Assembly: GCA_001938485.1 (NCBI GenBank)
Contig: MQRK01207995.1
Coordinates: forward strand, 18,793-82,792
DNA length: 64,000 nt
Direction: 5' to 3'
From: Girardia tigrina
Lineage: Eukaryota
Below the pieces are notes generated by a model, which was not told the DNA's origin, searched no databases, and saw nothing but the letters and a program-made list of their open reading frames with translations. This document shows, one piece after another, positions 7,713 through 63,770 of the stretch. The first letter of the stretch is position 1; each line of letters begins with the position of its first letter. The position numbers and the translations under genes are program-made.

Positions 7713-10700
7713 TGTTTGATTTGCAATTTACAATTTCATATGTATATCTGAAATGCTTTTCAAGTTCAATATTAACTATAATGTACAATCTAGAGTAAAC
7801 TAAAGTGATCTAAATATGATGAAATTCGATAGATAAATATAAAAATTGATTAAGTCAAAAATTAAATCAACAGCAAAGTCTCACGAGATTGATTATAGAT
7901 CCGACATATTCGCAGAGTGCATATACCATCTGTTTGTCATTGTTGTCTCTGTCTTTCCACTCGATATTGTTTCTAACGGCTTCCTTGTGGTCACGGATGA
8001 TCGACTCGATCACCGGATTGCACATCAGCGTGTAATTGATTACGAATTCCATCTCCGAGTTTCTGTTAATATATATATATATATATATATGTCGACTAAA
8101 AATCAATCAATATTTCTTTGACCATTGGTACACAATTTTCATCCATTTTTGAAATAGTTTACAAACAGTTTAAATTGAAGACATTTTAGCAGTAAATAAA
8201 TCAATCGAGTTTATCACATCTAATCACATAAATTCGAGAACAGCTCTCAAGAAGACCAAACTCGATAGGATCCTGAATAATGAACATGACGATTGGACTG
8301 ACTGGGGCAAGAGTGATTCTAGTCAAAAGACGCATATTATTCTATGAATACAATTCATGGAATTGTGTAACTGAGGTTCGAAGAGTTCTAAACTCTGAGA
8401 TCGCCTCAGAAAATCACAGAATCAGCCGCAGCAAAAAGTAACTGATGAGAGAGCGCATGTGTTCTGAATATTCAACGATCCTGTAGATTTGGCAGAATAC
8501 AGGGAAAGTCTAAACATAGCTGAGCGACTGAAAGAGATAGTCGAGCACGAGAAAGAATATCCGTAAATGCTTCTTGCTTTAAGGAATTTTCTGAACAGAA
8601 AGAACTCACAAGACACATTAAGAATGTGCATCTGGCCACGGCGCCGACGACACAGAGAGGTAGTGGTTCATTCATATGTCCCATGGAGAACTGGCACAAA
8701 AGTTATAAAACTAATGGATGGCTACAACGGCATTTATTAACTGATCATCGAATCCAAGGTAATAGTACTATGAACATCCAAGTAGTACAAAGTGAAGAAA
8801 CAGAAAGACGTACAGGACCTTTGAACTTGAACGCGGAACATGATATTCGAAGTGTCTGTCAGTGTAACTGATGAAGACTACCCAGGAGTAATCTTTAGTG
8901 TGGTGCTAAATTTTCGGCAGGATAAGAGAATGGATAAGAGAATGTTTCATTACCCATTTCTCCATTGCACTAGGTGCGATTATACAGCCAAAAGTCTCCA
9001 GAATCACAGAACGAAGGAACATGACGGTCATTGCTCAGAAGGAAGCCGAAGCGTGTCCGTGCATTGAAAACTCGCACTCTTGCACCTGACGCCGTGTGAG
9101 AAGATCAGAAAACTTTGTTTTTGTCAAATGGTTTCTGCCCATACAGCGTCTATGATTCATTACCATATGCACCAATGCTGAGTATTAATTGTAATACACA
9201 GTTATCCGTAACAGTCGGGGGAGGCTTATAACCATTTTTTAATCATCTTTTGTGAAAAATGCTATCAATAGAAGTCATTGTAATAGAAAATATCATCCTT
9301 AAGCACTGCAAAAAATCAGATGTTGACAAACTAAATACTTTGTCTTTATAATTTAGAATCTCAGATCTTATAATTTGTTCATCAATATTGAAAGCGATAA
9401 GTGCAGCTAACACTTAATTAATAAACTAAATATTTTGATTATTTTTATTATTGTGGACAGACGCGTACGCAGAAAAATATTTCGGGGAATACAATATTGT
9501 GCAATATTTGTTTTTTTTTTCTTTTTGTTTTTTTTTCTTTGTCTTCTTTTTTTCTTAGTTTCATTAATTATTATTAAAATAATAAATTTTTTAATACCAT
9601 GGAAATACCACATTTAATAACTTTTATAAGAAATAAAATTACATACATTTATACAATAATTACAGAAGCATAAGTCTTCTTGGGTTCTTCGCCAAAGAGT
9701 CTACAACTTTGTCAGTCTTTAAGGATGATTCCTGGTGAATGTTCATTATAGCTTAGCCATTCAATATCTGTTCTGATGCCGTGTTTCGTAAGAAATTCTC
9801 GATTCAACGCAATATAGAAAACGATCCTTAAAATGTGGCTGTTGCTACTGGTAAAGTTGAAAGATATTTTGATTACCGTAGTCACCCAAATATAATGCTC
9901 CCCAACTTTTGAATCAAAGAACTGGTCTTTTTTGACATACTCGAGTATAACGCTCGCCGTAAGTTTTCAGAATTTTGTTTAAAAAGTTAGTTTTTTTATG
10001 AAAAAATTTTATTTTCCACAAAAAAATTACATATTTTATATTTCAATCAGAAAGAAAGAGGAGGGTATTCATTTGAATTTTTACCTACAACAGATAATTA
10101 TGACAGGCAGTCACGCACGGTACTATACTGATTGATAAAATACCACAAACGTACCAATAAAATTTATTACATAGCTTGATATCCTATAACACAGAATTTG
10201 ACTTTGTAAACTGGGATTTCTCACATACTCAAGTATAATACTCGTCCGATTTTTGAAGTTGAAATTTGGGAAGAAAATGGGAGCATTATACTTGGGTAAT
10301 TACGGTAATACAATGACGCCTTCACATCGTCACTTCGCCAAAAAAGACTTCTTTAGTGCCACTAATATCACTTGACCATTTCTGGCATCTACATATAGGA
10401 GGATTTTGTTATCTGCAGCTCCCTTAATGTTTGAGGAAGACAAATTTCTATGCTCAGCGAAACTAATATTCAGTTTAAAAATTAATATTTTTCGGGAGCG
10501 GGATTTTTTTAAAATTTTTTAGAGATTTCACATTTTAATCATGTGAGGAATATTTTAAATTGTTTGAATGTGTAAATGTAGTGATGCGGTATGTTGAATT
10601 TAGAAGGGTGATTCTCCCACCCAGATGAAAATTGGTATTTTTTATTTAAATTTAAAGTGATTGACTATTCGAACATAATTAAAATAATCATTTGATAAGT

Positions 10701-13700
10701 TCATATCTTTAATTTAACAATTAAAATTAAGTTTAATATTTTTTAGTAAAATTTAAATTAAATGCATTTTTAATAATTTGATGACATTTTTATTATTTTG
10801 GGATTTATTGAGAAATGGTAAAAATTATTATTTTTAATTAATATTAATTATTATATTTAAAAAAATGACTTAGAAAAATTATTCGAATAATCTTGACTAA
10901 AAACAGAAATAAGAAAACCAATTAGAATGATGACAAACGATAAAAGACTTTCTGAGAGTCATAAGACTCTAAATGTGATTGTAATAAAAGTTCAAACGCG
11001 ACTTGTCTAAATTTTCTTAATAAATCATAAACAGTTTAACTTATTCTTATTAATATGCAGTTTAAAAAATTTATCCCCTTAATCTTCCCCCTGTGTACGC
11101 GCCTGATTGTGGAGTTTAATTATGTTCGAAATTTGTTTTTAAGAAAAATGCAAAATAAACGACAATTAAAACAAACAGAGAACGAGAAAACTCACGACAA
11201 TCCGGTTGCAACGAGAATATTCGTCAATAAATCGACTGCATCGGCAAATAATTCAGGCTTATGTATACAGTGCATCACAAACTGTTGTAAATTAGGTATT
11301 GTTCGGCCGTTACCCGAACAGTAGTTATATATATAACTGATCGATTTCAAAGTCAGTTGGTGCAGATTTGTGTTGCTGGAAAATCTTGTGCTCGTCTGAT
11401 TAATACAGATACGATTATCCGCATTTATAACACAAAATAAAATGATTATAGAAATAATAAATGCTGAAAAAATGTCAATTAGATTACTGAAAATCAATCT
11501 TTCTTTAATAATTGAGAAACGCACTTTGTCCAAGTGTGGCTGTAACACGATGGAATTTTAATGCTACCATAAATTAGTAAATCAAAAAAAATTTTTATAT
11601 CCATTATTTATGCAGAAAGAACTCTACTTTACCAACAAAATTTAAATTAAAAAAATATTTTCAAAATAAAACAATAAAAAATTTACAAATTTTGTTACCC
11701 AAGAAGAGTTCCACCCTCATAAAGCATGGATATAAAAAAAATAATTTTTTTGATTTACTTGTTAGACTTTTAATCTGCTTACTAGATTTTATTTATTTTT
11801 CATTTTTTGCGTAACAAAAACTACTTATAATTTATAAGTAGATCTTTTTCAATTAATATTGTTCTGTTCCGAATTTTCCGTTTTTTTCCAATTTTACGAC
11901 CTTAAAAAGTTGTTTTTGAACAAATTTTCACATAATCTTTTATTGTCATTGAGTAAAGTGTCATTGTCAAAGTGAGTAAAGTGCAAAGTTTGGAGAAAAT
12001 TCATTGAGTAAAAGGCCTTCAAAAATAGGCTTCTAAATTCCAAAGATATATATCTTGTGAACGCAAGTTTAGTATTTCGAAAATATAATTTGATTAAAGT
12101 TTTTTTGATATAATTATTGGACATGTTTCGATGTTTACATACATCATCATCAGCAATTTTCGTATATTTAGTATATGAATATTGAATTGTTTGAATAATA
12201 GAATTTTAAAAGATACATTTACTCTAAAAGGTAACGAAGAAATTAATTACTATTATTTATCAAAGTATTATTGGGTAATAATGGCAAAAAAATATTTTAA
12301 TTAAAAATTTTATATATATATATATTATTGAGTCTTGTGAACGCAAGTTTAGTATTTCGAAAATATAATTTGATTAAAGTTTTTTTGATATAATTATTGG
12401 ACATGTTTCGATGTTTACATACATCATCATCAGCAATTTTCGTATATTTAGTATATGAATATTGAATTGTTTGAATAATAGAATTTTAAAAGATACATTT
12501 ACTCTAAAAGGTAACGAAGAAATTAATTACTATTATTTATCAAAGTATTATTGGGTAATAATGGCAAAAAAATATTTTAATTAAAAATTTTANNNNNNNN
12601 NNNNNNNNNNNNNNNNNNNNNNNNNNNNNNNNNNNNNNNNNNNNNNNNNNNNNNNNNNNNNNNNNNNNNNNNNNNNNNNNNNNNNNNNNNNNNNNNNNNN
12701 NNNNNNNNNNNNNNNNNNNNNNNNNNNNNNNNNNNNNNNNNNNNNNNNNNNNNNNNNNNNNNNNNNNNNNNNNNNNNNNNNNNNNNNNNNNNNNNNNNNN
12801 NNNNNNNNNNNNNNNNNNNNNNNNNNNNNNNNNNNNNNNNNNNNNNNNNNNNNNNNNNNNNNNNNNNNNNNNNNNNNNNNNNNNNNNNNNNNNNNNNNNN
12901 NNNNNNNNNNNNNNNNNNNNNNNNNNNNNNNNNNNNNNNNNNNNNNNNNNNNNNNNNNNNNNNNNNNNNNNNNNNNNNNNNNNNNNNNNNNNNNNNNNNN
13001 NNNNNNNNNNNNNNNNNNNNNNTTTTTAACTCGTGCATCTGTACATAATTTGTCTAATGTTACCCTAATGTTGTGTTCTATTTGCTTGTTTGTATACATA
13101 TTGTCCCTCAAGCGCCTTCTAAGAATATTTAAACCCTGATTCGTAATTTCAAAACTGGACGATAAATTCCAAACTCTGTGAACAAGCCCTTTTATCATAC
13201 CCTCTGTATTTTTCCTCACAAAAACTCTGAGGTGTAAAGACCTGTATCTGTTGCCTTTCTGAATAATTCAGTTTTATGGCCCCCATTCATCCTAGTGACA
13301 AGAATGTCCAGAAAGTGAAGTTTATTATCTACTTCCAATTTTGTGGTAAATTTAATATTCGGATGAAGACCATTCATGAATGTTAGGAATGGTTCTATGA
13401 GGGATTGATTTCTGAAAACCAAAAAGACATCATCCACATATCTCTTGTATAACAAATGTTTTTCACCAGGGTATGCATTCATTTTATCCTCAAGCGACTT
13501 CATAAAAATTGATGCCAAAGTTGGTGCTAATGGGGAACCCATTGCGACACCGTCTTCCTGAATGTACCATTCATCATTAAAAAGAAAAGGTACATTTTTG
13601 GCACAAAATTTAAGAAGTTCTTTCAGTGCCCGCTTGTTCATTAATTCATTCACAGAGCTAGAGCTGTCATCCCATATTTTTTCACACAAATCAATGGTTT

Positions 13701-16700
13701 CATCGATATGTACGTTTGTGAATAAACTGGAGACATCAAATGAGACCATACACTCAGAATCACATTTCGGTACCTGATTCAAAATGAAATCTTTTAAGTC
13801 AAAGCTATCCCTAATCTCGAAATCATTTGAAATTAAAGGACTCAATAGTGAATCAAGTTCTGTGAATAAAATAATGAACAAGCAGGCACTTAAAGAACTT
13901 AATAATGTATTAGTTTTTTTGATTCATTTGTTTGAACGAATCAGTTATTATGAAATTATGATTGCTAATAAAAATTATTCCTGATTATCGATTTCATTTC
14001 TTGGTTGATTATTATCATTTTATTACAATCATTATATGAAAGAATTGAGTTTTATGAAAAATTTTGCGTTGAGCGAGTTTGCTGCTGTGATCTCGAAAAC
14101 AGCGGAAGTTCCGATAGAACGCGTTAAATTGTTGGTTGAAACCTAAGAGGAAATGTTGATACAAGGTCTCATTGACCGACCTTACAACATCGACCGTTTA
14201 AAAGATCGATTACACGATTGTCACATTTTGAAATGAATGTTTAGTTCCATTTTTGAGAGGAAATCTGGCAAATTGCATCCGGTATTTCCTGACACAGGCG
14301 TTAAATTGTGCGTTTAAAGATAATATGAAAGTGCTGTTTAATGCGTCAAAAAATAATACATATTTTGCGACCAATGCCGCAAGAAGAGAAAGGAAAACGG
14401 CCCTCATTAGGGCCACAATTTATGATTGGAGGTTGTCGCTCCACGATTTCAGAGAGCGAGAAATGGCCGTCAGATGACCAAGAAAATTAAAATCGGCAGT
14501 AAAAAAACTTGTAAATAAATCAGCGTGATGATTTGATGGAAATGTAAACAAACATTTTTTTATAAAATATATATAAATTTATTTTAATATTTGTCCCGTT
14601 TATTCTTTATAAAATATATCTTATTTACTATTATAAATTTTGGCTTTCAAAAATTGTCCCATTTATTTTGGTTGTCGCGTCCCGTTTATTTTTTCAATGG
14701 AATTTTGTCCCGAGAAATGGGAACCTACAGTAGTTTCATTTGTCAGGAATTAATAATACAAAAGGTAAAAGACCGATTTCGATTAATTACTACATTCAAC
14801 GTTGCGGGAATAGAGTCTGTAGAAAAGAATAATTATGACCCAATGATGCAACGGTAGTAAATAAGGCTTTAGGTCAATTGGTCTAGAAATAAATAAGGAC
14901 TGAGGGCGAAAAGTAATACTAACTTTAAATCTCTATAACTCCAACATAAATTCACAAATTACAAAAACTAATCAAGTAGGCTGTTGTTTGAATAAATCAA
15001 AATAAAATTCATTTTTTAATTTCATTCTTCATGAATATGTCGTCACAAACAGGAAGTCGCGAATTAATTATTCGTTTATTTCAAGAAAATCCACATTCAA
15101 GTCAGAAAACAATCGCCAGAAAGGCAAAGGTTTGTCAGAAAACAGTTTCTAACGTTATTAAAAACTTCAATGAGAACTTGAAAGTTTTTAGAAAAATTGG
15201 TTCGGGAAGAAGAAAGGGTTTTTCGTGTACACAGAACGTGAAGAAAGTAAAAGCTGTTAGAGAGAAATCCTCGTCTATCAATTCGAAAACTGATGGTAAA
15301 GCCAAATTGTAGCGAGAAAAAAGTTCGGAAAATTAAACAGTCTGTGGGTTTAAAAGCGTAAAGTTCAAACACTACCAGACCGGAACGCTAACAAGAAAGT
15401 AAAGGCACAGCAGCGAGTCAGAAAGTTTAAATCTGATTTTCTTTCGAAGAAAAGATTTTGCATTATGGATGATGAGACTTATGTGCTATGCTAGTTTTTA
15501 CAGCTACCCGGTCAAGAATTTTACTCTGCAACTAAGAGAGGAGGAGTTGAAGAAAAATTTAGAAGAAAGAAAAAATCTAAGTTTCCCAAAAAAATTCTTG
15601 TTTGGCAGGCTATATGTGGATGCGGGAAAAGGAGTAAATGCTTTGTCACATCTGGCACAATACACACAGAAGTATATGTGAAGGAGTGCTTGCAAAAGCG
15701 TTTATTACCATTCATAAGTCAGCACGGAGGTTTTACTTTCTTTTGGCCGGATTTGTCATCGTGCCACTTTAGTAAGGCAGCCAAGAAGTGGTACGAAGAC
15801 AATAACGTCGATCTGGTGCCAGGAGAGTCAAACCCACCAAATTGTCCAGAGCTTCGCCCAATCGAAAGATTTTGGGCCCTTGTAAAAAGGTAATTAAAGA
15901 CGACAAACAAGAGGGCACAGACAATTGCAGATTTTCGGAACAAGTGGAATAATGCAGCCAAAAACGTAACAGAAACTACAATTGCAAGTCTAATGGCAGG
16001 CATTCCGGAAAAGCTCGCTGAATTTATTAAAAAAATAAATAATCTTTCTTAGATTACTAAAATTATTTTGAATGAAACACGTTTTTCAAAACAGTCGGTA
16101 TTTTTCAATCAAGAATATGGTTTTGAAGATAGAGTATTTTAAAATTAGTATTATTAGTTCATACCAGAAAGAATGAGACTTAAGAAATGTCAATATCATT
16201 TTTAACGTGCAATGTAAAAAACAACACTGTGTAATACATTCATTCATAATCACCATTCTTCTTTATAACATTAGAGAGTCATTGTATCAGTTTTCCCATC
16301 TCAAGTGACCATCGATCAGCAGAAATATTTTTCAGTTGTGATGTAATGAATTGATGTAACTCATCTGCAGATTGAAAATGGGTTTCGTGTCGCTGATCTT
16401 CCAAGTAAGGGTGAATAAAGCGATCCAAGATCATGGGAATATGGTGATTGACGGAGCAAGGTAACATTCTTGTTTGCGAGAAACATGGACGTCACTTTGG
16501 AAACATGAGGCCTCGCGTTGTCTTGCGCGAAAATCATGTTCTTCCAGTTGAGTGGAAACACATGTCGACTAAACTTCTTCTCCATATTAACAAGAAAAGT
16601 GACATAACGCTCGCTATTCATGCTTTCTCTCTCCTGCAGCAGTTCGCAATGATATTTTCCAGTAAAGGACACTGCGATGACAGACATGATTTTTCTGTCA

Positions 16701-19700
16701 AACTGGCTACGCTTCACGACATGAATGGGTTCACTGTGATCACCATCAGGGGACACCCAGCAACGGTTGCTTCTTTTCTTGTCAACAATTCTCATGTAAA
16801 ATCACTTCTCATCCACCATCACAATATGTTCATGTTGGTGTTTGCTTTTCAAAATTTTTAACCATTCCTTTGCAGTAGTGACACGATTAACATTTTGATC
16901 ATTTGACAATGCATGAGGAACCCACTTACAGGCAACAGACCGAAAGCCCAAATGGTCACTCACAATACCTGAATGGTTCCATGGCTGAGGGATGTCTCAT
17001 CTTCAATTTCATCAATGGTCACTGCACCATTGGCGTTAATAATTCCAGAGACCAACAAAATATTTTCAGGGGTTGTTTTTGTTGATTTTCTCCTGCAGTT
17101 TTCCCAAACAAAAGAAGTCCAATTCAATTATCCCCCGATACACTGTAGATTCTCCAAAACTGTCAGCACAATGAACAGAGATAATTTCCTGATAAATTTC
17201 ACTTCCCGTTATGCCGAGTGAATAACTGGAGAAGGTATAGAAACGAAGATTTTTTTCTATTTTCCGCCATCATACAGACAAATAAATCAACCAATATTCA
17301 AACAAGTATTCAATAAATATTTCTGTCAATATTTTTTTAACTATTACATATTTTTACTCTTTATATGTTACTATATACTGCGCAAGTAATTTCCGCATTT
17401 ACAGATCACAAACATAGAAATATAACATCATTCTCACTCTTTCTGGTACGAACCGATATTTTTCGCACTCAGTCCTTAAATTATCCTAACAAGAAATTTA
17501 TCTAAAATTAAACTCGATTAAAATAAATCCGTTGAAAATAAATTTGTCTAAAATTACGATATACAGACTTGGGATGATGAAATGAGTGGCTTAAAAATTT
17601 TAGATGTTACGCCAATTTGTTTTAGACCAATTGGTCGGCTACCGTAAATAAAACACTTCATTCAATTCAATCCAGGACATCAACTATCGAAAAACGATTT
17701 TAGCACTGCTCTCGGAGAAGCAGAAGAACATCACACCCCACTGTGGTTAAAATACTGAAGAAATGTCCTAGTATGTGTTAAATATTGACGATTTAATGTA
17801 ACCTACAGATATTTTTTCCATTTTTCTTCGTCGATTTCGAATGGTTTTCCACTTTTCTGGCGGTAAAAACAGTGCTGCACAAATGGATAATTAAGTTATT
17901 AAAAGATCTTTAAATGTGTTTGTTTTCTTTTCTGATCTCGTAAAAGTAAAAATCCACTGACATCGAGATAGATAGATAGATTTTAATTGTCTATTTCAAT
18001 ATGAGTCTCTGGACTTGTTGTGTCATCGGCCGACAAGTTCAAATAATCAACATGAACATTAGTTATTAAATTAATTATTAAAAATATTTAATCAAATAAA
18101 ATTAAGTCAATAGATCTTTTAAAATAGGTTCTAAATCTATAAATATTTTTCAAAAGTATTAATAATAAATAAAAGAGAATGTGCCACCTCGAGGATGATT
18201 GACAAGAGCTCATTGGCCTCCTTATGGAGTGCTTGACTCAAACTAGAGAGCGCAAACACAGGCAAGTCTCTATTGCTGAATATTTCAATCATATTGCTGA
18301 TTAGTGTCTGGTTGCGACACGCGTTGGCCTCATTGTCATTCTGCAATCCTGTTGTATAATCATCAACATTAATAGCTTGTCGTTTCATCATTAATCAATA
18401 ATCGAACCCGTCAAAACGTTAATAAACGATTTATGTTCGCTCTGGCTGATATATAATAGTTTTATATACGCTGTTAACTTGATGAAATATAATAAATTGA
18501 TTTTTTCTTCATAAAACCGTTGATCGATTTGTAAATGTAACCAGATAAAATCCTCTTCATTGATCGTCTATAACAAATCGTAATTAATGTTTCTTTTCAG
18601 TCAAAGAAAAATTGTCGTCATTTCCGTATTACCGACAAGAACCATCAGTAATAATTTTGGTTCAAATTTCTGCTTTAACCCTTCGAAACTCAATATTTTA
18701 AAAAGGTATTTTAAAGGTATTTTAAAAGGTATTTCTTAAAAGGTACTAATAAATCACCGATGTTGTATAGAGCGGTGTGAAACAGATATGCAACAGTGAT
18801 TTGAAATGTGATATGTTAATAGTTAGATATCCTGTAAGAGTTACAACGGTTTGTTACAGAAGTGTCACACCATGTTAAGAAGAGTTTTAGATGCCTGTTA
18901 CAAACAATATGCGGAAGTGAAGGAGTTAAACAGGCATCTCAGAAGAGATCACGAAGGAGTAGAGCCAATCCGGCGGAAGAAGAGAGAGAAGAAAACCCAG
19001 CTACGTCAGAAGAAAGGAAAATATCAACGTCAACACTGTCCGAGGGAATACAAGACCGCTGGTTTCCTAAGGATTCATATTCAGAAGAATCATCAAGAAG
19101 CGCCAATATCCAATGCCCAGAGAGAAGAAAACTTGGAAGAAGAGAACGAGGAAGAGTCGACATCAAACCAATCCAATCCTCAGTTGCCGGACGCAACTGT
19201 GAGTATGCCGAGGAGACAGCCGAACGACAATGCCGAAGAGACGCACCTACAATACCGACTGCCAGCCGATTACAAGACTGCAAGAGGACAATTCAAGTGT
19301 CCGTTTCACGGTTGTTATGCGTCCACCGTAACAGCCAACGGCATGTACGGCCATGGTACCAAGTTCTATGGTTGGTCGTTCGTGACTGGCAAGCCGACTG
19401 CTCAGAGGTGGAAGACCACTGACCCCGTAGGAGGCCTATCGGGGGGCCCTTAAGGACTTTAGTTTCGGTGGACCCTCTAAAGAGCCTTAGGCTCAATACC
19501 ATTACAGAGATGGGAGGCCCACGAAGAGTTAATTATCAATTTTTGAAGATGTTTTTTGTTAAATATCATAAAAAATATAATAATAACACATGATTTCCAA
19601 AATGAAATCGATTTTAAAAAAATAACTAAATTCTAAATATTTATGAAAAATGTGAAAGATAAAATGAAAAACTTTTTTCCAAAAAAAATAATAAATTTGT

Positions 19701-26176: not shown

Positions 26177-29100
26177 TTAACGTTTCGTGGAATATTTGAG
26201 ACAGTTGTCTGAATATCCATGCAGAGACAGATAGCCTGCCTTGATCTCCGATGGCATACACTTGATCCTTGAGTATTCTTTGATGTCGGCATACCGCAAC
26301 TTCGAGTCCGGGTCACGATATGCAGTGGGAATCCCACTCAAATCGGATAATTCGAGTCGAGGACGAACACTAACCGGAGAATCTAGCTCGTCATATAACA
26401 CGGCAGTCTCGGGCCATTTCATCTGATAATCAGTCAAAAAGTCAACTACAGTTCCATTTGTTCACATATCTAAAAAGATCTATTTTCAATTTTTTTCATT
26501 ATTATTATTTTAAAAATAATTTGTCATTATATATTTAGTTCCAGTGTCAACATATCCCAAGAAAAAACGTAAAGTAATTATCTATTAATCCATCAGTATC
26601 CACATCATTTTTATTTTTTTTATATTTTCAAAGAAAATAATATTTTTTTTAAATTATTAAAGTATTTAGACATTTTTTTTTATCTTTATACCTTTATGTG
26701 ATATTGGACTTCGATTTTCATATAGAACTTAATCGACAGACGCTGTATGTCATTACAATTATAAGACTTCGAAATACTTCAATAATGCGTCCACCAATAT
26801 TTTTTTAACATCCTTTCTTTACCATTATTATTGAAAGATTTATCCTTATTTTTCAGAAAAATATTTTTCTGTACAAATAATGATATGGTAGGTAATACTT
26901 GCAATGTTTGAGTAAGTTCTATGTGAATTGTAATTCCAGACTTTGCGTAAAACAGACGGATAAAATAGTCAATATAATGGTGTTTTCAATATTAATAAAT
27001 TTTCTCCAAAAACTTACAAATTTTAAATTTAAGCAATTATGATAAGTAAGAACCTTTGGAAATTTTTTCTTCAGTTAATTTACTAACTAAATAATTAAAC
27101 TTAAAAGACAAAAGAACCTTAATTTATCGAATTTCCCAGTGATATAAATAAATATTTAAAAAATATAAATTTAATAATGACAAATTATTTCTTAATATAA
27201 TAAAGAAAAAAATTGGAAGAATTCCTTTCAGATTTCTTATGTGATAAAAAACCATTTTAACCCTAATAAAATTAAAAACAGGTTCGATGTTAGTCAAAAA
27301 TAGTTCGTAAACCTAACCAACAAATTCAATGAGCTACGCGGCCGCGCAATTTATTGTTAAGTAATTTTTAGAATTTATACTAGTAGTAATGATATTGTTG
27401 CGATTATGTTTTAAGAAAATCAATGCTCTTACTTGATATTTTTTTATCATGAAATAATTAATTTAAAGGATTTAAAAATCTTAATTGTTTTTGAAGTTGG
27501 AATCATATCATTAGCCGTATTTAACGTATTGTATACGTATGGACCATACGGTATGGTTTATCATTTTTTATAATTTAACATTTATTAGTCTATGTATATG
27601 CATGCATACATACACATACACTCTTCAATTTAATTGTTCATGTGGCCTATTAAATATAAGTCATTTGAATCAATATATTTTTTTCAGAAAATTTTGCGGA
27701 TATTAAGAACACCAATTTGAGTTTCCATATTTTTATTTATTCAACAATTTTGATTGTCCTTAAAACAATCTTTGTCAAAGCTTTCGTACAATTGCATTCT
27801 AAACTAAATTGATTAATGAATTAATTCTTATTATTTTATTAGCAAATGGAGAAATAAATATTTTATTAAAATATTTACTCAAAACTTATTGGATAACAAT
27901 TAAAATGATTATTAATTATTTTAAAAATATTAATTCGATTTATTTATTAAAAATTGTAAAAACTAATTAACTCGTTTAAAATTAAAAATAAATTTAAACA
28001 TTACATATTTTTAGATAATAAGAATTCAAATATTAATCATCCATCTGGGTAGGAGAGACACAATTCCAAATCAACATACACATTCAAAATATACCTCAAG
28101 GCCTAATTATCCGAGCACCGAGAACAAAACAGAGGAAAAGTTGACTCTAATCTTTATTTCTAACCAAAGTGGTATACATATACATATTTTTTGAAAAATA
28201 TAATTTGATTAAAGCTTTTTATATAATTATTGGACATGTTTCGATGCTTACATACATCATCATCAGCAATTTTCAGATTTAGTATTTAAATATTTGAGTA
28301 GTACAATATCTTAAAAGATATATTAAGTTTAAACAAAATAATTTTTAAATATATTATTATTTATCAAAGTATTATTGGGTAATAATGGCAAAAATACTTT
28401 AATTAAAATTTTTAAGTATTGAAATAACCTTACTTTGCCCATTCTGAATGTTAATTGATGGGTTGTAGTGTCTTATTAGTAGAGATTCACAAAACTGTCG
28501 TTCGTAATGTAAATCAAAACCCTTTTGTAGAACAGAAAACTCATCTTTTGAAATGGATGAGGTTCTATCCTTACAACATAACCAATGATCAAGAACCTTA
28601 CTCGATCGACTCATTTGCGAGTGCTTGCTAATCCGGGTTTTGAGATGGCTATTTGTCTCTCCGATGTACGAGTTTTGACACCCGTGACAATAAAATTTAT
28701 ATACCAGATTAGCTTGCAAGGATTAGATTTCTGTCACATGCAAAGTTAAAAGTTTCCTCTCAAATAAATCGAAAACAGTTTGGGGTTTAATCATAAACAA
28801 CGAAATATGTCAGACTATATAGGAGTAGAAAAAATCCAACTAAACATCATCACATACTTACAAGACACATTAAATAATTATTAATAAATAATCACAAATT
28901 AATTCATAAATAATCACAAATTAATAAATAAATATTCAAAAATTAATTAATAAATAATCACAAATTAATTAATAAAAATTCATAAATTAATTATTAAATT
29001 TTAATAAATTAATTCATAAATAATCACAAATTAATTAATTAATAATCACAAATTAATTCATAAATAATCACAAATTAATTCATAAATAATCACAAATTAA

Positions 29101-30752: not shown

Positions 30753-33231
30753 TCAAAATATTGAAATTAATTTCATCGATTAAAACGAATGAAGGAAGAT
30801 CGATTGATCGATCAATTGAAGATTTGCAATTCATTTGGATGTGGATTATTTGACAGGCATTAATACAGAAATTTAGATTTATATAATTGTATTTTTGTTT
30901 CAAAAAAATCATCGAATAATTTTTGTTTAGTGAAACTTGGTTTAATAATAATTAGATTGGCTTTACAAATTATAATTGAGATCATTTTTATTAAAATTAG
31001 AATTTCTCTATTTTTACGTTCTGGATTCATTCGCTCAGTTTTGGTCTGTTTGTTTGGTGCAAATCTTTTAATCATAGTTCATCCCACTTTTCAATATCGG
31101 TTAGAACTGAAATTTCGCAAAATTATCTATCCCGACTTATATTTTAATAATTTATCGAAAAAAATTAATTAATGGATTAATTAATAAGAAATATTTAAAC
31201 ACAAAAAGCGGAATAAAATAGACAATCAATCAGAAAATTTAAGTCAAAATCCTAATAAATCGATGTATGATTATTATTCGTGTAGCAAACTCGTCAAATA
31301 TAAGTATGGTTTTTAAAAAGATTTTTTAATATTAATTAATGTGTTACGCACAAGGGTCAATTTTATATTTCCCAAACGTCGTAACAAGGAAATAAAGTCC
31401 TTTAATAAATCAATCAGGAATTTATATCAATTAATTTTATCGAAAAATTCAATAACGTAAGACTGTTTAAATAAAATATTTATTAGAATAATTACAAGTT
31501 CTTTACAATTACAATTGTTAATAAGCAAATATGTTGATATCCTGGTGTGTGATGCGTTGATTTTATGTAACTGGGAAGCACCGTTCTCCAGTTACAAGAG
31601 GTTTAGGAATTGATAAATAAAAATTATTAATTTAATATATTATGAAAAATTATTGNNNNNNNNNNNNNNNNNNNNNNNNNNNNNNNNNNNNNNNNNNNNN
31701 NNNNNNNNNNNNNNNNNNNNNNNNNNNNNNNNNNNNNNNNNNNNNNNNNNNNNNNNNNNNNNNNNNNNNNNNNNNNNNNNNNNNNNNNNNNNNNNNNNNN
31801 NNNNNNNNNNNNNNNNNNNNNNNNNNNNNNNNNNNNNNNNNNNNNNNNNNNNNNNNNNNNNNNNNNNNNNNNNNNNNNNNNNNNNNNNNNNNNNNNNNNN
31901 NNNNNNNNNNNNNNNNNNNNNNNNNNNNNNNNNNNNNNNNNNNNNNNNNNNNNNNNNNNNNNNNNNNNNNNNNNNNNNNNNNNNNNNNNNNNNNNNNNNN
32001 NNNNNNNNNNNNNNNNNNNNNNNNNNNNNNNNNNNNNNNNNNNNNNNNNNNNNNNNNNNNNNNNNNNNNNNNNNNNNNNNNNNNNNNNNNNNNNNNNNNN
32101 NNNNNNNNNNNNNNNNNNNNNNNNNNNNNNNNNNNNNNNNNNNNNNNNNNNNNNNNNNNNNNNNNNNAAAAATTCACTAAATTCAAAAATATAACATTCA
32201 CAAAAATAAAAATAAGCAACCCAAATTCAAATTAAGAATAAATAAAAAGATTCATATTTTCATTACATTACATTACCCCAACAAATGTGTATAAAATTAT
32301 TTAATAAATTAACAAACGAAACAAATTAAGAATAAATAAAAAGATTCATATTTTCATTACATTACATTACCCCAACAAATGTGTATAAAATTATTTAATA
32401 AATTAACAAACGAAACATTAATAAATTATAGCGGACTTATTTTAAATCGTTTTAGGTGATATTTAAAACCATTAACCTGTGAACTGCATAGGTCAATCTC
32501 GTATCAAATTGTTTCCTTTTACATCATTTCAATTTATTCTCTTGTAACAAATTGAATATTTTCAAAATTACTATTGCTTGAAAAAATTCAGCTTGTTTTC
32601 TTTTATTCCCATTTATTTAACAATTTACATCAAGTTACAATTTTTTTTATTATTAGACGCAAATATTGATTTAAAACGTCATCAATGTGTAAAAGCATAA
32701 CCATTTAAATGAGTGAACGAACTAAGTAAAAAACTAGAATATTTTACTTCAAAAAAACGAAATTAGAAATTTCAAAATGGTGTGGTTGGTATATTTGAAA
32801 ACGGATTATATTTGATGAATGGAATATCGCTAACTCAACACTTTGTAGTTGTTTCTGAGCCTCCTCACAAAAGAAGAAACTTCTCTATTTATTTTCACAG
32901 CCCCACTAATGCTACCGTGAAGTGCATCCCAATCCTATGCACCTGTAAGCAGTCTAACTGTTTGCTAGACTCTATGATTTAACAAAGGAGGGTGTTCAAT
33001 TTGACTGAACAGAAGAATCTCCAAAATACTTCAATGAAATGAAAGAGGCACTGTTCAATCCGACCGGAGGGGGAGAGCCGTAACAGACACATTTTACCTT
33101 CGAAATCCAAAGAAAGAGGAAAAAACAGATGAATGGGTAATTGTCAAATAGTAAAATATTCTTGAAGTCTATTGTGCCGACCAATACTATCGAAATAAAG
33201 AAGGGATGTAAAAATAAGAGGTCAAATTGAG

Positions 33232-34070: not shown

Positions 34071-34899
34071 CAAATTGAGTGCTCTTCGAGTCAAAAACAA
34101 AAGATAAGGTCAAAATAATCACTCGAGATAAATTAATATGAATTCTAAAACAATCGATTTCCCAATGCCAAAGATGAAATAGTGTCTGATCAATGATCGA
34201 GGTAAGGGGAAATTAAAGATCGGAAAACAAAATCAGTTGACCAATAGAGCGAAAAATTTTTGTATTGTTTGCTGCTTTTTGTGGATGTTGTTTTTTTTGC
34301 AATTCTGGATCTAAATGAATCCATTTAAATAAAGAAGGTAAAAAATAATAAAAGAAAAAAGATATTGCCAAAATAGTGAACAAAAAATATATGGTTAGTG
34401 GTTTATGAATCACAACGTAATATATTTTCTAAGACCTTTGATTAGTCAATTAAAAATGAGAATCGGACTCTGATTGGTCCATGAAAATCTCAGATTGTTT
34501 GTAAAAAAATTTTAGTGTTTGAAATCAGAATTTTTTGTCGAGGTTTGGTTTTGTTTGGTAGTGGAAAAGGAGTGCAAAAACATAATCGATTGTAATGAAA
34601 TCTGCTGGGATAAAAAAATATGATGATGATTTGATCAGAGGTTTTTGTTTTACAAGTGGAGAATTTTGTAAAAAAACAATAACAAAATATGTATGTTCAA
34701 TTAGAGAATAATAAAACATTAAAAATGAATGATTCTTGTCTAAAATTGATGTCGTATTTCTTCTCAAAAGATGACAAAGATATTAATGGGAAATTGTAGC
34801 GATTCTTTCGAATGAAAGGTTTATCAGTCCGAGGGACGTGTTGTGGCTAGAGTTGCTGGCTCCGAACCGCCCATGTCCAATTAAACGCAACACATACGG

Positions 34900-36020
34900 A
34901 ATGGGGTTTTCAGAACTCAATAACACTCTATTAATTCTCACGCCGCCCAATTGACCTATGACATCCATACCTATTAAGATCTCTAAACCATACGGCAAAT
35001 GTTCCATGACTGAACATTCCACCCTAAGGATCCTACCATTTATAGTCAACCGCACTTCACCCGAACCCACTCTAACACTCTTTCGATTCGCCAAAACCAT
35101 ACATTCTCCGTCACAAAACAACATACAAACACTAACTAACCCTTTTAAAATAACCGTTTTCAAACAACCCGAATCAATCAACGCTATGGCCGACCTGTCA
35201 TTTACGGGGACGATCATCGTCGCCAACGCCTGCAACTGTGAAGAGAGGGAGTCGGCGCCTATAAACTCCCCTGTTCGTTTCCCGATTGACAATATTTTGC
35301 TATATGACCCAGTTTCTGACATTTGTAGCATATTGTATGTCTGTTTGATTGCCACTGAGAACTTTTATGATGCTTCTTTTCCTCAAATTCGGTGTCTCTC
35401 TCACGATAAAAATAGGGTCCTTTGTGAAGATTTGCTCTGGGTTTATCGAGTTTTCCCTGACCTCCCGATCTACCTGTTTCTTTGCTGTTGTTTCCGTGTT
35501 GTATTACTACCATTGAACCCTGAAATAAACCCTTTTTAATCCGAAAATACCTACGGCTATACTCGATCATTTCGGTCAAGGGTTGGTTGTCGGCCCGTTC
35601 CATATCCACCTGCAACTTGAAAGGCAGTCCTGCCATGAAGGCAGCCTTTGTTAGATCGTCGACCTTTGATGCTAGTATCTTCACCTGAGACGCATATTCA
35701 TCGATAGTCTCGCCCTCGTGATACTGTAAGTTTATCAATTGACTGTACGCAGAATGTCTAGTCAGGCCGAACGAATTATTTAGTATCTTGAAGAACCGAT
35801 CGCAGCTGCTTTGAGTCTTCTCGTCCGATTCCATGAAGATGTTCAGTGCAACCCCCGATAGTAAAAAAGGGAGATACGGGGCTGGATCAGTAATCTTCTG
35901 GATTTTCATGACCATTTCAAATTTCTCCTGCCAGATCTCGAAGCTAACGCTTCCATCGAATTTTTCCAAAAACTCTAAAACGATTTTCATATCATTCATT
36001 ATGCCCGGATAGCTTGTAAC
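34900..36020 (-). mobile_element. Gypsy LTR retrotransposon fragment (gag-protease)
   Basis: CYKCQKLGHIAKYC zinc knuckle; ALIDSGC and ILIGMD aspartic protease; truncated before RT. Confidence 0.92.
35238..35283 (-). promoter_or_regulatory. -1 ribosomal frameshift signal (gag-pro)
   Basis: G GGA AAC slippery heptamer (35277-35283) followed by a ggggagt...actccct stem; protease is in the -1 frame. Confidence 0.75.
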
Positions 36021-36769
36021 ACGCGAAAAGTTTATTTTCAACACATTGTTTAATTGATAATATTTAAACAAAATATTTATCAAAAAAGCATATATTAAAT
36101 ATTTTGAATAATTAAATTATCTAATATCCAACAAAAGGAAAGAAAAAGCTCTTTAAAATTATTTTAGTTAATTTGAAATGAAAATTATGTTATTTGTTAA
36201 AAGAGAAAAAAAACTATGAAAAAAGATTTATATTATTTAAAGAATTGGTTATTGTTGCTTGTTTTAATATGTTAATTAAAATTATAAAATTTTGATATCT
36301 AATAAATAAATATATCGATTTTGTCTTAATTAATTATTACAATTATTATATAAAGCAATTGAATTTTACATTGCTATAAATGCGCAATAAAGAGTCGAAA
36401 ATGAATCTTCTTTTGTCAATAATAAAACGTTTTATAAATCTTCGAATTAAGAAAAATCCAATAAAAGATTGGAAAATTTAGATCTCTATCAGAACAATTA
36501 TGAAACAAATTCCAATTCGAAATTTATGACCATGAATAAATTCATTCACAAAATATTTCTTTCGAAAAGCAACATCGGTGACCACTACGAACCGGTGGAT
36601 ACGTTCACGCAGCACGGATCTTTGCGTCAATACTGTATCAAGGGCATCGAAATAATACTTCGGATTATTCGTTATGGATTAAATATGAATACAGGCTCGG
36701 AAGTGTTGAATATATGTATAAAAGAAGTTGAATGACGACGTTTTCAGTTGGGCGTGAACAAGCGTTCGA

Positions 36770-50700: not shown

Positions 50701-53700
50701 ATGTGCAGAAACGTATTTTTTCTTTAAATAATATTACATTACAAAAGACCTAGTCTCAGTCTCTAACCATTTTCTCAAAACACTCATTTTGATTGTGGGA
50801 TAATTAATTTGAAACTCACTGTACATCATTCTATACATGATGCGAGAAATGATTTTGATGATTCTTAAAAAATTCAATTTCATCGATATTATAAAAAATT
50901 ACTATCTAACTGCTCTTCCAAAAATAATTTAAAAAGCTTTTCTTGATAATCCTAGCTGCATCAAAGTTGAATGGTAACTTTTGAAAATTCGTCTTACGTT
51001 CTGAAATACTATGTATCGATTAAAAATTTCTAAGTCATCCTTGGCTTGCAGTAAAATCTTCCCTTTTTCGAGTTTTTCATCACCAAAATAGAGGATCAGA
51101 GATATGGTGTCATAAGGATCTTTTCTGATAAAACCATTAATATACACCGTCGTCAAACATTTCATGTTTCTTAAATTACCGTTATCAAAGTTTACTTGTG
51201 ATCAAACATATTTTTTTGATCATTTCTTTACTTTTCTTTATATCAGAAATTGTTTAAGTACCAACTCTATTTAAACATGGAGTAATCCTTAATTATGTGT
51301 ATTGCGTTGATTGTCACTCGGCACCAAAAAACACCAAAATCATATATACAGAAACAATCCAAAATCTTATCACCAAGAAATTTAAATTATCAAAAAAATC
51401 AAGATTATCAGAAAATAAATTTATCAATTACTAAATAAATTCAATCTCCAAAAAATGCAAACTTTAAAATCCTGTATCACATTAAAAAACCCAATTATAA
51501 AAAAAAACAAATATAAAATTAATTAAATAAAAACAAATAAAAAACCTGTTTATTTTAAAAAACAAACCCCAAAATACAAAAAGCGTAAATTTGAATAAAG
51601 AAATCCGCCATCGTAACCAACGATAAAAAACTGTGTAGCGATAATTTGAATAACTAATCTTAACGAAATCAAGAGTGAATCGATTTCTCTTTCAACGATC
51701 TAAAGACTGATTTATCTTTCTGTAATGAGTTGAGAAACAATTCATCCTCACTCATACGATCAAAAATAAATTCTTCTTCACAAGTCTAAGAACCAAATTA
51801 TTGTTAAGAATTAAAAATGCTGGGAAAAATTTTGAAAGAAGGTTAAATTAAATATGTACAAATTAAAATTTATTTATAATTAAATATGTAACGTTTGAAC
51901 AAATAAATTACTAAAATTATGAAGATCTAATTAAATTGTTAATAATCAAAAATTTTTGAGAGTTTTAAATATAATATAAAAATTAAAATTTTTATTTTTT
52001 GTATGTGGAACGATTTTTAAAAATTAATAAAATAAACGAAACGATTAAATATTTTAAAACGTTATCATAATTTAAAATTAATTTATAAAAGTAATTTAAA
52101 AATGTCAAATATGAATATTTATAAGTATTTTTATTTATATCGGTGTAAGATTTATAAAACAAATTGTTTCTCAAAAAAATAATAAGTTTGTTTAAATATT
52201 AGATTTAAACATTGTTTTGTGTTGTATAATAAAAGTTTTGATGTCTGAAATAACCAATAGTAATAATTTAGACGATGTTCCAAGAACCTCTAATAGTTAT
52301 CTCTCTTAATTTAATTCAAAAATTCACTAAATGCGACTCTGGTGCGGAAAATCCTCGCGACAAGCGTTGATGCTTGTACTTTTTTATTAAATAAATTTTC
52401 TATCTTTATTTTTCATGTCAATGTGTTCGAACACGTTTCGAGAGCGGATTGACCCAGTAATCCACGAACTGATACACCCTTTTGTCGAGAAACCATACCG
52501 GGGCGGTACAGGTTAAAGTTAATATTTTCTTGTCACTTTCAAATGTCTCAGGCCACACTCCACACCATAATGTGCTTTTACAATTCGGAAAACTGATCCG
52601 AGTAATCAGAGGTTTTCTGCGTGTACAATCACAGTCATATAAAACTTTAAAATATGCTATCAAAATTACCTAATTAAAATCAAATAACAATTTCCATCAT
52701 CATATATAATTTGTAAATCATCATTACACTAATATTTGCAAATCAAAATATTAAATTAATCATAGTTATAAATTATTGAAACTTATAATGGAATCATTAA
52801 GTCTATGCTTAAACCTAATAACATCTATTACCAAATCACATTTTTACTTTTTGTAAACTGCGAACTGATACTATAATTATTATTTACAAATGTTTTAAAG
52901 AGGTTCATACCCTTACAAAATTCAATGCAACATATTTTTCTTATTAAAAATTTTTTGAAAAAAAGTCTCACATTAGAACTATAAGAGTTTTTGAGAATTT
53001 GGATCTTAGTACATTGTTGGGTCATGAGGAATGTATGAGATTACCCGTTGCAAATAAATAAACATACAAACATATAATTTCTTATAATATTAATAATTAA
53101 CAAATTACAAAGACGGTAAAAGATCATTTCATCAATCTTACTTTAAATTTTTCATTCATTAAAACCATTTGCTTCAAGCTCTGATCGATGCCTAAAAGTT
53201 TCATTGAGATTTCCGATTTCAGAGAACTCGGTTTGACAAATAATTTCCCAATTTCACTTATTTTATTCGATAAAACTTTAACTTTATTTTCATCAAAGTT
53301 TTCTATTTGCAATTTTATTTCTTTGCATAACTGAATTTTATTTTGTAGGTCCATCAGATTACTAAGACTCTGCACCTTATGAGATTCCTCAGTGATGAAT
53401 AAAGATATGTCCACCATCCATTTCTCAGCTTCCAACAAATCATTGTAAAGACCCTCAATGTTGGACTGGTCATGGACCAAGTCCTTTTCCAGTTTCTGAA
53501 AATAATCGAAATATTCGAGAAAGGTTTAAAAAATAATTTAATTACAAATTAATTGTCGTAACTATATTCAACCATTTAATTTTTAAAAAGTTTTTTAGAT
53601 TTATTTATAAATATTTAAGATTTCTTGATCCCAGATCATAAAAGTGTGTCATATATCCAAAGCCGCATTTATCATTAATCTTATTAAGCAAAGGTTCGGA

Positions 53701-56700
53701 GCCTTCGTTGCCAGAAAGCTTTTAAATTTCAAAACATTTGAAAACGAAAAAAAACTTTTTATAGCTCGTTGATAAAAATTGATTGAACTTCACGCCTGAA
53801 AATCAAAGATTGCCAAAATGACTACTCGTTTTCCTAACCTGTTAATCTTTTAATAGTTTACAAGCACAAGGAAATTTCAATCACTATTTACTATCAAATC
53901 TACACATTTGGTCACTATTAAATGATTAGAATGATCCCATGATTATCATGAACATGGGAATCGTTTTCAGGAGATAAATTAAAAATACATGAGATAAGTA
54001 TAGACTGGCCCAAAATTTAAGAAGTAAAATGAATTTATCGAAAAATATTTTAAAAGAAAACGGGCATTTAAAATAATATAATTTTAATGAAAAAGCTACT
54101 AGAAGTGTATTCCTTCTGATACAACGATGTTCCGAATTCGTTTTTCAAACGCATCAATAACTTTTACCAGCCTTTTTCGGTTTAATCTGCTAAATCTTTG
54201 AAGAAATAGAACTCCTCAATTCATAAAGAGTTTCCGGCCGATCTCGGTAGATGTTGTCTTTGACATAAACCAAAAGAAACCAATTTCAAGGATTGATGCT
54301 TGGAGAGTAAGAAGGTCACTCAATTCCTCCTTCAGACTTCTTTGGAGCATCGAGACAAATCAGTCTTGATCTGAATTCATTGCCCAAAAGCGTGAAAACT
54401 TCCTAGGTTTGATGCGGACATGTTCCGTCCTGCATGAACCAAATTCTTGTACCATGCCAAGTAATCTTATCTTTGAAAGTGCTTTTTTGTTCAATATTTG
54501 ACGACAAACTACTCCAGTAACAGTAGTTTCAATGAATGTCGGTCCAACAGTAGTTTTTGATGGGATGATTCACTATACAGTTAGTCTTCTTAGATGTAAA
54601 GGTTTTACAATCATTATTTGTGGTTTATCTCGTTCCCAGTATTGGATGTTCTGCTCGTTGACAAAGCCATCTAGGTGAAAATGAGCCTCGTTACTAAAGT
54701 TGATTTGTTTGATATTGATGGACTTCTCTTTCATCATTGTAACCATCGTGTTAGCAAACTCAAATCAATATTTTGCGGCTTTTTCCAACATGGACTGCGT
54801 CATTGGAAGCTTGTACGGTAAGAGCTCCAGGTTGAGTTTTATGAAGCGTAGCAAAGAAGATCTGCTTATTTCTAATTTTTGCAAAGTGAATCTTTGAGAA
54901 CCAGTTGTGTTTTCTTGGAAATAGATTTTGACTCTTTTGATATTTTCTTCGATCCTGACGCTCCTTTTCCTCCCTCGGGTTTCTGTTTCATCGGGAACAT
55001 TTCCTGTACGTCGAAATTTATCAATTAATCGTAATACCGTTGAATAACGAATACTGAATGACTCAATACAGAAACTCGGCACACCGATGTTCACCCGGTT
55101 CCGAATGACTGTCAGGTTCTAGTTATATCCAAAGTACCAAATCAATGAATATTTTATCAAAATCAATTAATAGCATTAAAATGACTAATACTTAGGCTGT
55201 CCCAAAAGTCCTCAAGTGGCCTTTAAAAACACACTAATATTTTACCAAATTTAACCAAATTTGGACTGAATATTATTCAGACTGTCATAAATACTGTGTT
55301 AAAATTTCAAAGCATAAAATTAAAAAAAAGTAAAATTTTGTTTTATTGAAATTTTAAAAGTGCAGCTAATTCAAATCAAGCGGTTTTTAACAATGGAACC
55401 AAATAAATGTTTAGACCTCATTCTAGCAAAGAAAGAACTCTTTTTTTTGAAAGAAGAAAAATTGGAAAAATTTATTAATCGCCCTATAGTCCAGATTTTA
55501 ATCTGTGTGACAGATTCTTGTTTTCAAAAATGAAGAAAAGTTTTAAAAATCATGTTTTCAAATCACATGAAGAAATTGAAGAAGCTTGTAAATTCTTTAG
55601 CAACAAAAACATTAAAAAATCAACTAGATAAACTTTTTAACTATTGTCAGTTGGTTATTGACAACAATGGTGAATATGTTGTTGCTTAAGAAATTTTTAA
55701 AATATTTTTTTAAATAAATTTTTAAATTCGCTGCATCTATTTTTTTTGTTGGTTAATAATATTATTTTTTTTGGTAAGTTTCAAATTTTATGCTTTGAAA
55801 TTTTAACACAGTATTTATGACAGTCTGAATAATATTCAGTCCAAATTTGGTAAAATATTAGTGTATTTTTAAAGGCCACCTGAGGACTTTTGGGACAGCC
55901 TAATATAATGACGGTATTGTAATTGAGGATATTTGTGTATGCAAAATTTCAGCTCGTTTACAAACAAAGAAATTATATCGAAGGATTTGAAAAAAGTGTT
56001 ACAGACCGACAGAGTGAACATATATAAACTTTGTAATAAGTTAACTTATTATTTTACTGAGAAATAACTCATAAATAAATTAATAATAATTGTTAGGACA
56101 AGTAATTGATAACAAAGATAAATGCAATGGAATAAGGTAATAACTACAGTTAAGATGAGTGAATACATTTCAGAAGAACATTATTTTTTTTAAAGGATTC
56201 TTGAAAAAATAATATTATTTTATCTGGAAAAAATACGGCTATACGCTTGGAAATCTAATCTCATTTTACATCTAATGATTGGAATAATACATTGGTGGAC
56301 TCTTTGTAATCTTTAATTTTTTAAAATATATATATATATATATATATATTAGGGATAAAAACAAGACGACGCGTTTCGAGATAATAAAAATCCCATCATC
56401 AGGTCACAAATTACACTACGCAAGTACACTATATGGTTACTTGCCGAAAATAAATTAAATTTATCCAANNNNNNNNNNNNNNNNNNNNNNNNNNNNNNNN
56501 NNNNNNNNNNNNNNNNNNNNNNNNNNNNNNNNNNNNNNNNNNNNNNNNNNNNNNNNNNNNNNNNNNNNNNNNNNNNNNNNNNNNNNNNNNNNNNNNNNNN
56601 NNNNNNNNNNNNNNNNNNNNNNNNNNNNNNNNNNNNNNNNNNNNNNNNNNNNNNNNNNNNNNNNNNNNNNNNNNNNNNNNNNNNNNNNNNNNNNNNNNNN

Positions 56701-63609: not shown

Positions 63610-63770
63610 CTGAATTTATGAAACAAATCAAAGTTTTTCTTTCTTTTGAATTACTTAGAAAAAGTAAAATGAATATCAATTAGATTCAGAAATTTATTAA
63701 GTGTATCAAGATTTTTATTTGGAGATTAACAATAAATGAAATTCATTCATTAAAAAAATATATTTAACTA

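Follow-up and report, generated by a model that had tools for sequence, protein, structure and literature searches.

Can two minimal hammerhead ribozymes that lie head to tail in an intron pair with each other, cut the pre-mRNA of their host gene and set free a small RNA? This question is raised by a locus in a 64,000-nucleotide stretch of Girardia tigrina DNA, called the window here, whose positions are counted from its first letter. An earlier note had described two identical 280-bp units of a Penelope-associated terminal repeat (pLTR) on the strand of an importin gene and had suggested that their hammerheads could act as a dimer and release a 280-nt, retrozyme-like RNA. Minimal type I hammerheads in the pLTRs of metazoan Penelope-like elements (PLEs) were reported by Cervera and De la Pena (2014; PMC4209133) and, according to the available part of that article, minimal dimers and trimers were cleaved at low levels. 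For coral and axolotl, canonical animal non-LTR retrozymes are treated in the accessible text of Cervera and De la Pena (2020; PMC7229834). In addition, the available part of a recent preprint (Li, Clavereau, Pollet; bioRxiv 10.64898/2026.07.22.740005) deals with pLTR-derived non-LTR retrozyme dimers and proposes the birth of retrozymes by local duplication of a PLE end. The idea of pLTR dimers as retrozyme seeds is thus already published, as far as the preprint text at hand shows. A literature search on hammerheads in planarian Penelope elements found, at the level of listed entries, no account of the present case.

The Penelope-like element and its end repeat

As assembled, the locus contains a pLTR core of 260 nt twice on the minus strand (12053-12312 and 12333-12592) with 100 % identity, separated by one 20-nt linker (12313-12332), which gives a period of 280 and 1.9 copies. 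Identity and period of the two units described before are therefore correct, but the identical part is 260 nt long and the remaining 20 nt are a single linker. This linker consists of the normal 3' end of the family, CTCAATAA, and (TA)6. The downstream copy (12053-12312) lacks the usual end of the family and runs into a short TA run, beyond which an unrelated high-copy dispersed repeat flanks the insertion (11572-12044); copies of this repeat often end at a TA run. The upstream copy stops, as already noticed, exactly at a gap of 430 N (12593-13022), at the point at which, in sister copies, the core meets the end of the GIY-YIG open reading frame (ORF). The gap is the expected place of a linker and the GIY-YIG part of the ORF, which together measure 467-484 nt in five of six sister loci. 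On its other side follows a 5'-truncated Penelope-type reverse transcriptase (RT) on the minus strand (13023-13857; RVT_1, E 1.4e-10, Pfam); compared with most sister copies examined, it has two deletions, of 5 nt and of 2 nt. The truncated 5' end carries a 48-nt inverted piece of the RT region (13853-13900, plus strand). Antisense trapping by an inverted pLTR in the host intron was considered and rejected; the inverted piece is RT sequence. The unit is the 3' end-repeat of a dead, 5'-truncated Penelope-like retrotransposon located in an intron.

In those sister loci whose upstream sequence is readable, the 260-nt core comes after the end of the GIY-YIG frame, and CT(C/G)AAT and (TA)n usually come next; exact junctions between ORF end and core occur 2,811 times in the assembly. 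Among 30 loci found with an N-terminal probe, five show the unit continuing into the ORF, and hence the unit is the true pLTR of an endonuclease-bearing PLE. In line with this class, RT and GIY-YIG follow each other in one ORF, with a continuous frame from RT to endonuclease in one locus (L089). The GIY-YIG domain of a sister copy (28402-28722) scores 21.9 bits, just below the cut-off of 22.6, and at the locus itself this domain falls in the gap. The tail of the family is visible in several inverted copies, which end at unit position 240, and in direct copies, which end near 268. The idea that solo pLTRs beginning at the ORF boundary form a family of their own was rejected; the pattern has three matches, this locus among them. 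The locus is an ordinary one among thousands of Penelope end relics.

Further copies and repeats are present in the window. A third family copy (28195-28722, minus strand) comprises a GIY-YIG end and a pLTR with a hammerhead at 28233-28266. Two related C2H2 zinc-finger ORF fragments (8524-8868 and 18827-19450, plus strand) probably belong to one dispersed repeat, and frames resembling the Gag and protease of an LTR retrotransposon lie at 34786-36116 (minus strand).

The hammerhead motifs

Each core carries a minimal type I hammerhead on the minus strand, at 12116-12157 in the downstream copy, with a predicted cut between 12120 and 12119, and at 12396-12437 in the upstream copy, which has the identical structure shifted by +280 and a predicted cut between 12400 and 12399. 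In the downstream copy, stem I consists of 4 bp between AUUG (12157-12154) and CAAU (12119-12116). The core CUGAUGA (12153-12147) is followed by an extra U (12146), stem II of 5 bp (GAUGU-AUGUAA-ACAUC, 12145-12130, loop AUGUAA) and GAA; the palindrome ACAUGU (12126-12121) and C17 (12120) complete the motif. The loop of stem II, AUGUAA, is a start-stop by itself.

The intact CUGAUGA/GAAA/GUC-type core claimed for both units was thus recovered, and the palindrome of stem III is present as well, with 6 nt (ACAUGU) instead of just CAUG. The exact 40-nt motif has 1,763 copies in the 1.43-Gb assembly and its reversed control none, and a descriptor scan of 435,765 bases gave four matches, all inside the window, again with an empty reversed control; the motif is therefore not a product of chance. 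An Rfam search returned no hammerhead match at E<=10. The following features of the minimal hammerheads of PLEs were found: the core CUGAnGA, GAAA and UH in type I order, an unpaired U (U12146) between positions 9 and 10.1, the pair G10.1-C11.1 (G12145-C12130), a palindromic helix III next to a helix I of 4 bp, and a location in the pLTR, where the hammerhead unit follows the ORF end and in 5 of 30 loci precedes the ORF. The two motifs of the window are members of this known kind. The earlier view of the unit as a Penelope pLTR whose minimal hammerhead depends on a partner is right. Column conservation of the ribozyme among genomic copies (0.980 compared with 0.966 elsewhere) gave no clear signal of selection. 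A minimal hammerhead of a second family, with the same plan, the palindrome ACGCGU and other paired stems, is found at 56368-56402 (minus strand).

In one sister locus (L113) the frame beginning with the AUG in stem III (window equivalent 12124-12122) stays open for 71 codons and runs into the sequence behind the pLTR, for which reason this AUG is the likely ORF start. The predicted cut would accordingly lie 2 nt behind this AUG, which sits inside the stem III palindrome. For the parent element, trimming of multimeric transcripts would be the task of the ribozyme.

The host gene

The insertion is located in a GT..AG intron on the minus strand (11396-18187), with the 3' splice site about 720 nt downstream of the nearer hammerhead. 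The downstream exon (11195-11395, minus strand) belongs to a probable gene of the importin-beta/karyopherin family. An 841-aa relative (P0001) maps to minus-strand exons at 18265-18182, 11398-11195, 8061-7885 and 2968-2705 and to five more beyond the window. Contigs of two runs from different studies, one guessed to be RNA (X3) and one of unknown kind (X9), span 11196-11397, and their overhanging ends, compared by eye, correspond to the adjacent exons, as expected for a spliced intron. Since exons and GT..AG intron share the minus strand, the hammerheads are in sense orientation to the host pre-mRNA; exons, mapping of the relative and spliced contigs all confirm the strand given before.

The identity of the gene is a lead from a language model (Atlas). 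Neighbours at 0.96 are TNPO3/IPO13/exportin clusters, and all ten of the best named matches fall in one family or clan, with a low recognition value. Searches of Pfam and PDB gave no significant match; the domains expected of the family are IBN_N, Xpo1 and TNPO3/IPO13 repeats. Single exons gave nothing significant in either database. On this language-model lead, membership in the importin-beta/karyopherin family is probable.

Both DNA runs compared have one extra T at position 11555, an intronic difference of one base in the assembly or the strain. Elsewhere in the window, an ORF at 26180-26461 (minus strand) contains a YL1_C domain (E 1.8e-7) and probably represents an exon of the INO80C/Vps72 type from a gene next to it. 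Spectrin-repeat character is seen in exon-like frames at 53127-53525 and 63196-63615 (minus strand), the latter matching Spectrin_SYNE1 with E 6e-5.

Age and origin of the second copy

A comparison with 32 other copies of the unit, from which this locus, one duplicate contig and alignments under 225 nt were left out, dates the two events relative to each other. Of its 260 sites the window unit has 6 (about 2.3 %) that depart from the majority, four of these variants occurring in none of the 32, and the other copies deviate from the majority by 2.5 % on average, with a mean pairwise difference of 4.6 %. The closest other match to the unit reaches 97 % (among 40 scored of 2,489 candidates) and that to the RT 96 % (among 40 scored of 4,011 candidates), so that no young donor was found among the scored candidates. 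Because the unit diverges like other copies and no near-identical relative was scored, the insertion is as old as its family. All six departures are common to both 260-nt cores; the doubling is therefore younger than the insertion, or it is not real. Two independent insertions side by side are excluded by the identity of 260/260 sites, given the mean pairwise difference between copies.

The second possibility, that only one pLTR with a normal end exists and that the assembler or a gap filler wrote its core twice, leaving a ribozyme that is an inactive monomer, is rather unlikely. It would explain the 100 % identity of the cores in an element that otherwise differs by 2-5 % from its relatives, the stop of the upstream copy at the N gap and the position of both joints in TA runs. 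Near-identical copies on both sides were seen at 4 of 55 gaps in 435,765 bases, a set that includes the window and contigs picked because they hold family copies. Moreover, a 48-nt contig of one run (X1) with a depth of 67.5 (single-copy about 54) matches 12013-12053 and then departs, within a flank that is itself a repeat, and a perfect 94-bp tandem, possibly an assembly product as well, lies 60 nt from another N gap (window 32228-32417). On the other hand, in the other duplicates at gaps N separate the copies and SNPs distinguish them, whereas the tandem junction at this locus is a 20-nt linker free of N. Allelic copies of a single unit would by themselves not give an end-to-start joint. The gap size also fits a tandem better: 430 nt are closer to the 467-484 nt expected if the upstream copy is the true element end than to the 710 nt expected for the downstream copy. 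Two other loci have head-to-tail pLTR joints of non-identical units, which indicates that such joints arise naturally. The second pLTR copy is thus rather likely to be real in the animal.

Exact blocks of 119 nt at four gap edges suggest an assembly k of about 120. With such a k, a real repeat of 260 nt would break off a contig at the very base where the upstream copy stops. Copy number could not be taken from the depth at locus variants; the pieces have depths of 129-408, which is explained by variants common to thousands of copies. In C252811 and C178920, near-identical copies of 500-765 nt flank gaps with 119-nt exact blocks and are probably alleles written in tandem by the assembly.

An origin at the time of insertion was also considered. 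Reverse transcription would have copied the pLTR, halted at the ORF boundary and begun again at the RNA's 3' end, leaving the kind of partial tandem that is typical of Penelope. Such tandems and two RT start sites have been described for Penelope elements, and four other copies (L052:1501-1867, L053:1302-1539, L091 and L092) begin within about 6 nt of the same point at the ORF/pLTR boundary, directly after a TA run. Two of the four form head-to-tail pLTR joints with non-identical units. However, copies ageing separately since insertion would by estimate differ at about 8-12 of 260 sites (chance of none <0.001), and no near-identical donor was present among the scored candidates. This origin is very improbable.

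In our opinion the 260-nt core was probably duplicated locally and recently, long after the insertion, and the two hammerheads would seldom pair or cut and would probably have no function for the host. According to this reading, a Penelope copy would have inserted and aged with its family, until a later break or slippage at the TA microsatellite adjoining the pLTR may have been mended by copying, with the neighbouring pLTR as template and a microhomology of 1-2 nt. A point against it is that the downstream copy is devoid of the 8-nt end, so that two template switches are needed.

Predicted folding and cleavage

The earlier expectation that the pair could form a dimer holds for the pairing itself. 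The double hammerhead is nested and possible in the folding model, and double cleavage would give 12399-12120, which is exactly 280 nt. Cleavage at a level that matters is not supported by the same predictions, in which the double fold lies 9.7-13.9 kcal/mol above the ensemble at 37 °C. Its predicted share at this temperature is 1.5e-7 in a context of 371 nt and 1.5e-10 in one of 563 nt, and half-dimers have predicted shares of 2e-6 to 2e-3. In the best fold of the monomer the core pairs with the palindrome, and the active monomer fold has a modelled probability of about 1e-8; the motif has a minimum free energy (MFE) of -6.4 kcal/mol, although that fold pairs the core. In the 371-nt context a half or full dimer is predicted 10- to 100,000-fold above the monomer, and in the 563-nt context the double fold lies below it. 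These two-dimensional models take no account of tertiary contacts, proteins or co-transcriptional folding and were run without a control of a known-active hammerhead, so that only the ranking of the shares counts. As predicted from these models, the two minimal hammerheads would pair and cut only rarely, too slowly to matter.

Comparison with known ribozymes and retrozymes

The following comparisons refer to the available parts of the cited publications. With the hammerheads of Cervera and De la Pena (2014) the motifs of the window share the conserved core, the extra base between 9 and 10.1, the G10.1-C11.1 pair, the 4-bp helix I and the small palindromic helix III, as well as the prevalence of solo copies from truncated elements and the requirement for a dimer. 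In contrast, helix II has 5 bp here and 7-8 in the Schistosoma families, and the two copies are 280 nt apart instead of about 3 kb. In the Poseidon element of Anolis (PAc) the ribozyme cleaved only with the protein of the element, and no RNA-seq reads ended at the ribozyme site (Frangieh et al. 2024; PMC11167929, as far as its accessible text reports). Like PAc, the present family has RT followed by GIY-YIG, AT-rich targets, a tail, an ORF start inside the hammerhead and a cut downstream of the start codon; this cut falls 26 nt after the start in PAc, the one predicted here 2 nt after the stem III AUG, and the copy in the window is dead.

The most far-reaching interpretation is an incipient retrozyme: the tandem would act as a double hammerhead within the host pre-mRNA and free an RNA of 280 nt for circularisation by an RtcB-type ligase, and it may reduce splicing or become mobile with the help of Penelope proteins. 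This reading is very improbable. The sense orientation in an expressed-looking intron and the nested dimer pairing, favoured over the monomer in the 371-nt context, speak for it, and axolotl retrozymes work as dimers according to the text at hand. With two units and -6.4 kcal/mol the locus would also come under the working definition of a non-LTR retrozyme in the available text of Li et al. (2026), provided that the tandem is real. Against it stand a ribozyme that is minimal and not canonical and a double fold with a probability of 1.5e-7 or less. Furthermore, eight of nine tested Xenopus dimers did not cleave (Li et al. 2026, in the part available), and the intron is spliced in the contigs of the two runs, whose animals may, however, be without the tandem.

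Retrozymes are described as dispersed families of tandem arrays with a highly self-paired circle in the consulted part of Cervera and De la Pena (2020), and neither property was found here. The circle of 280 nt (20 % GC) has an MFE of -16.5 compared with -23.0 ± 3.8 for 100 shuffles (z +1.7) and thus folds worse than these. Head-to-tail exact-pattern matches number 2 genome-wide versus 2,811 normal junctions, and 2 other loci among 40 scored align well across the tandem junction; an exact-pattern search of the assembly together with the 40 scored loci revealed no dispersed family of 280-bp tandem arrays. The unit resembles these retrozymes in its size within 150-450 bp, its low GC content, the type I ribozyme and the head-to-tail order as assembled, but differs in that it has no canonical loop 1-loop 2 architecture, no arrays and no stably paired predicted circle. 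The retrozyme-like circle proposed before is therefore not borne out: a 280-bp tandem family is missing, the circle is less stable than shuffles, and published minimal dimers are weak or protein-dependent, as far as the accessible accounts go.

The dimers of Li et al. (2026) are the closest parallel in the available text, with two consecutive pLTR units with complete hammerheads, a model of birth by local duplication and 42-44 % intronic copies in Xenopus. Unlike those, the present case is a single locus in an invertebrate-like genome, still joined to the parent RT fragment, with no dimer family and with a putative duplication. The tandem in the window is at most a seed of a non-LTR retrozyme.

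Significance of the locus

There is a slender chance that a retrozyme is seen here at birth, with a pLTR freshly doubled on a dead parent, transcribed by the host gene and releasing a 280-nt intronic circle, while an allele with one copy may still segregate and act as an internal control. Slow intronic ribozymes were found to have no effect on splicing (Fong 2009, as cited in the available text of PMC10919898). As it stands, the locus matters little and is probably neutral. Should the tandem be real and able to cleave, it would illustrate cleanly, at the level of alleles, the proposed first step by which a Penelope pLTR turns into a non-LTR retrozyme. It would then also serve as a natural test both of cutting by minimal hammerheads in vivo and of the consequences of an intronic cut for splicing.
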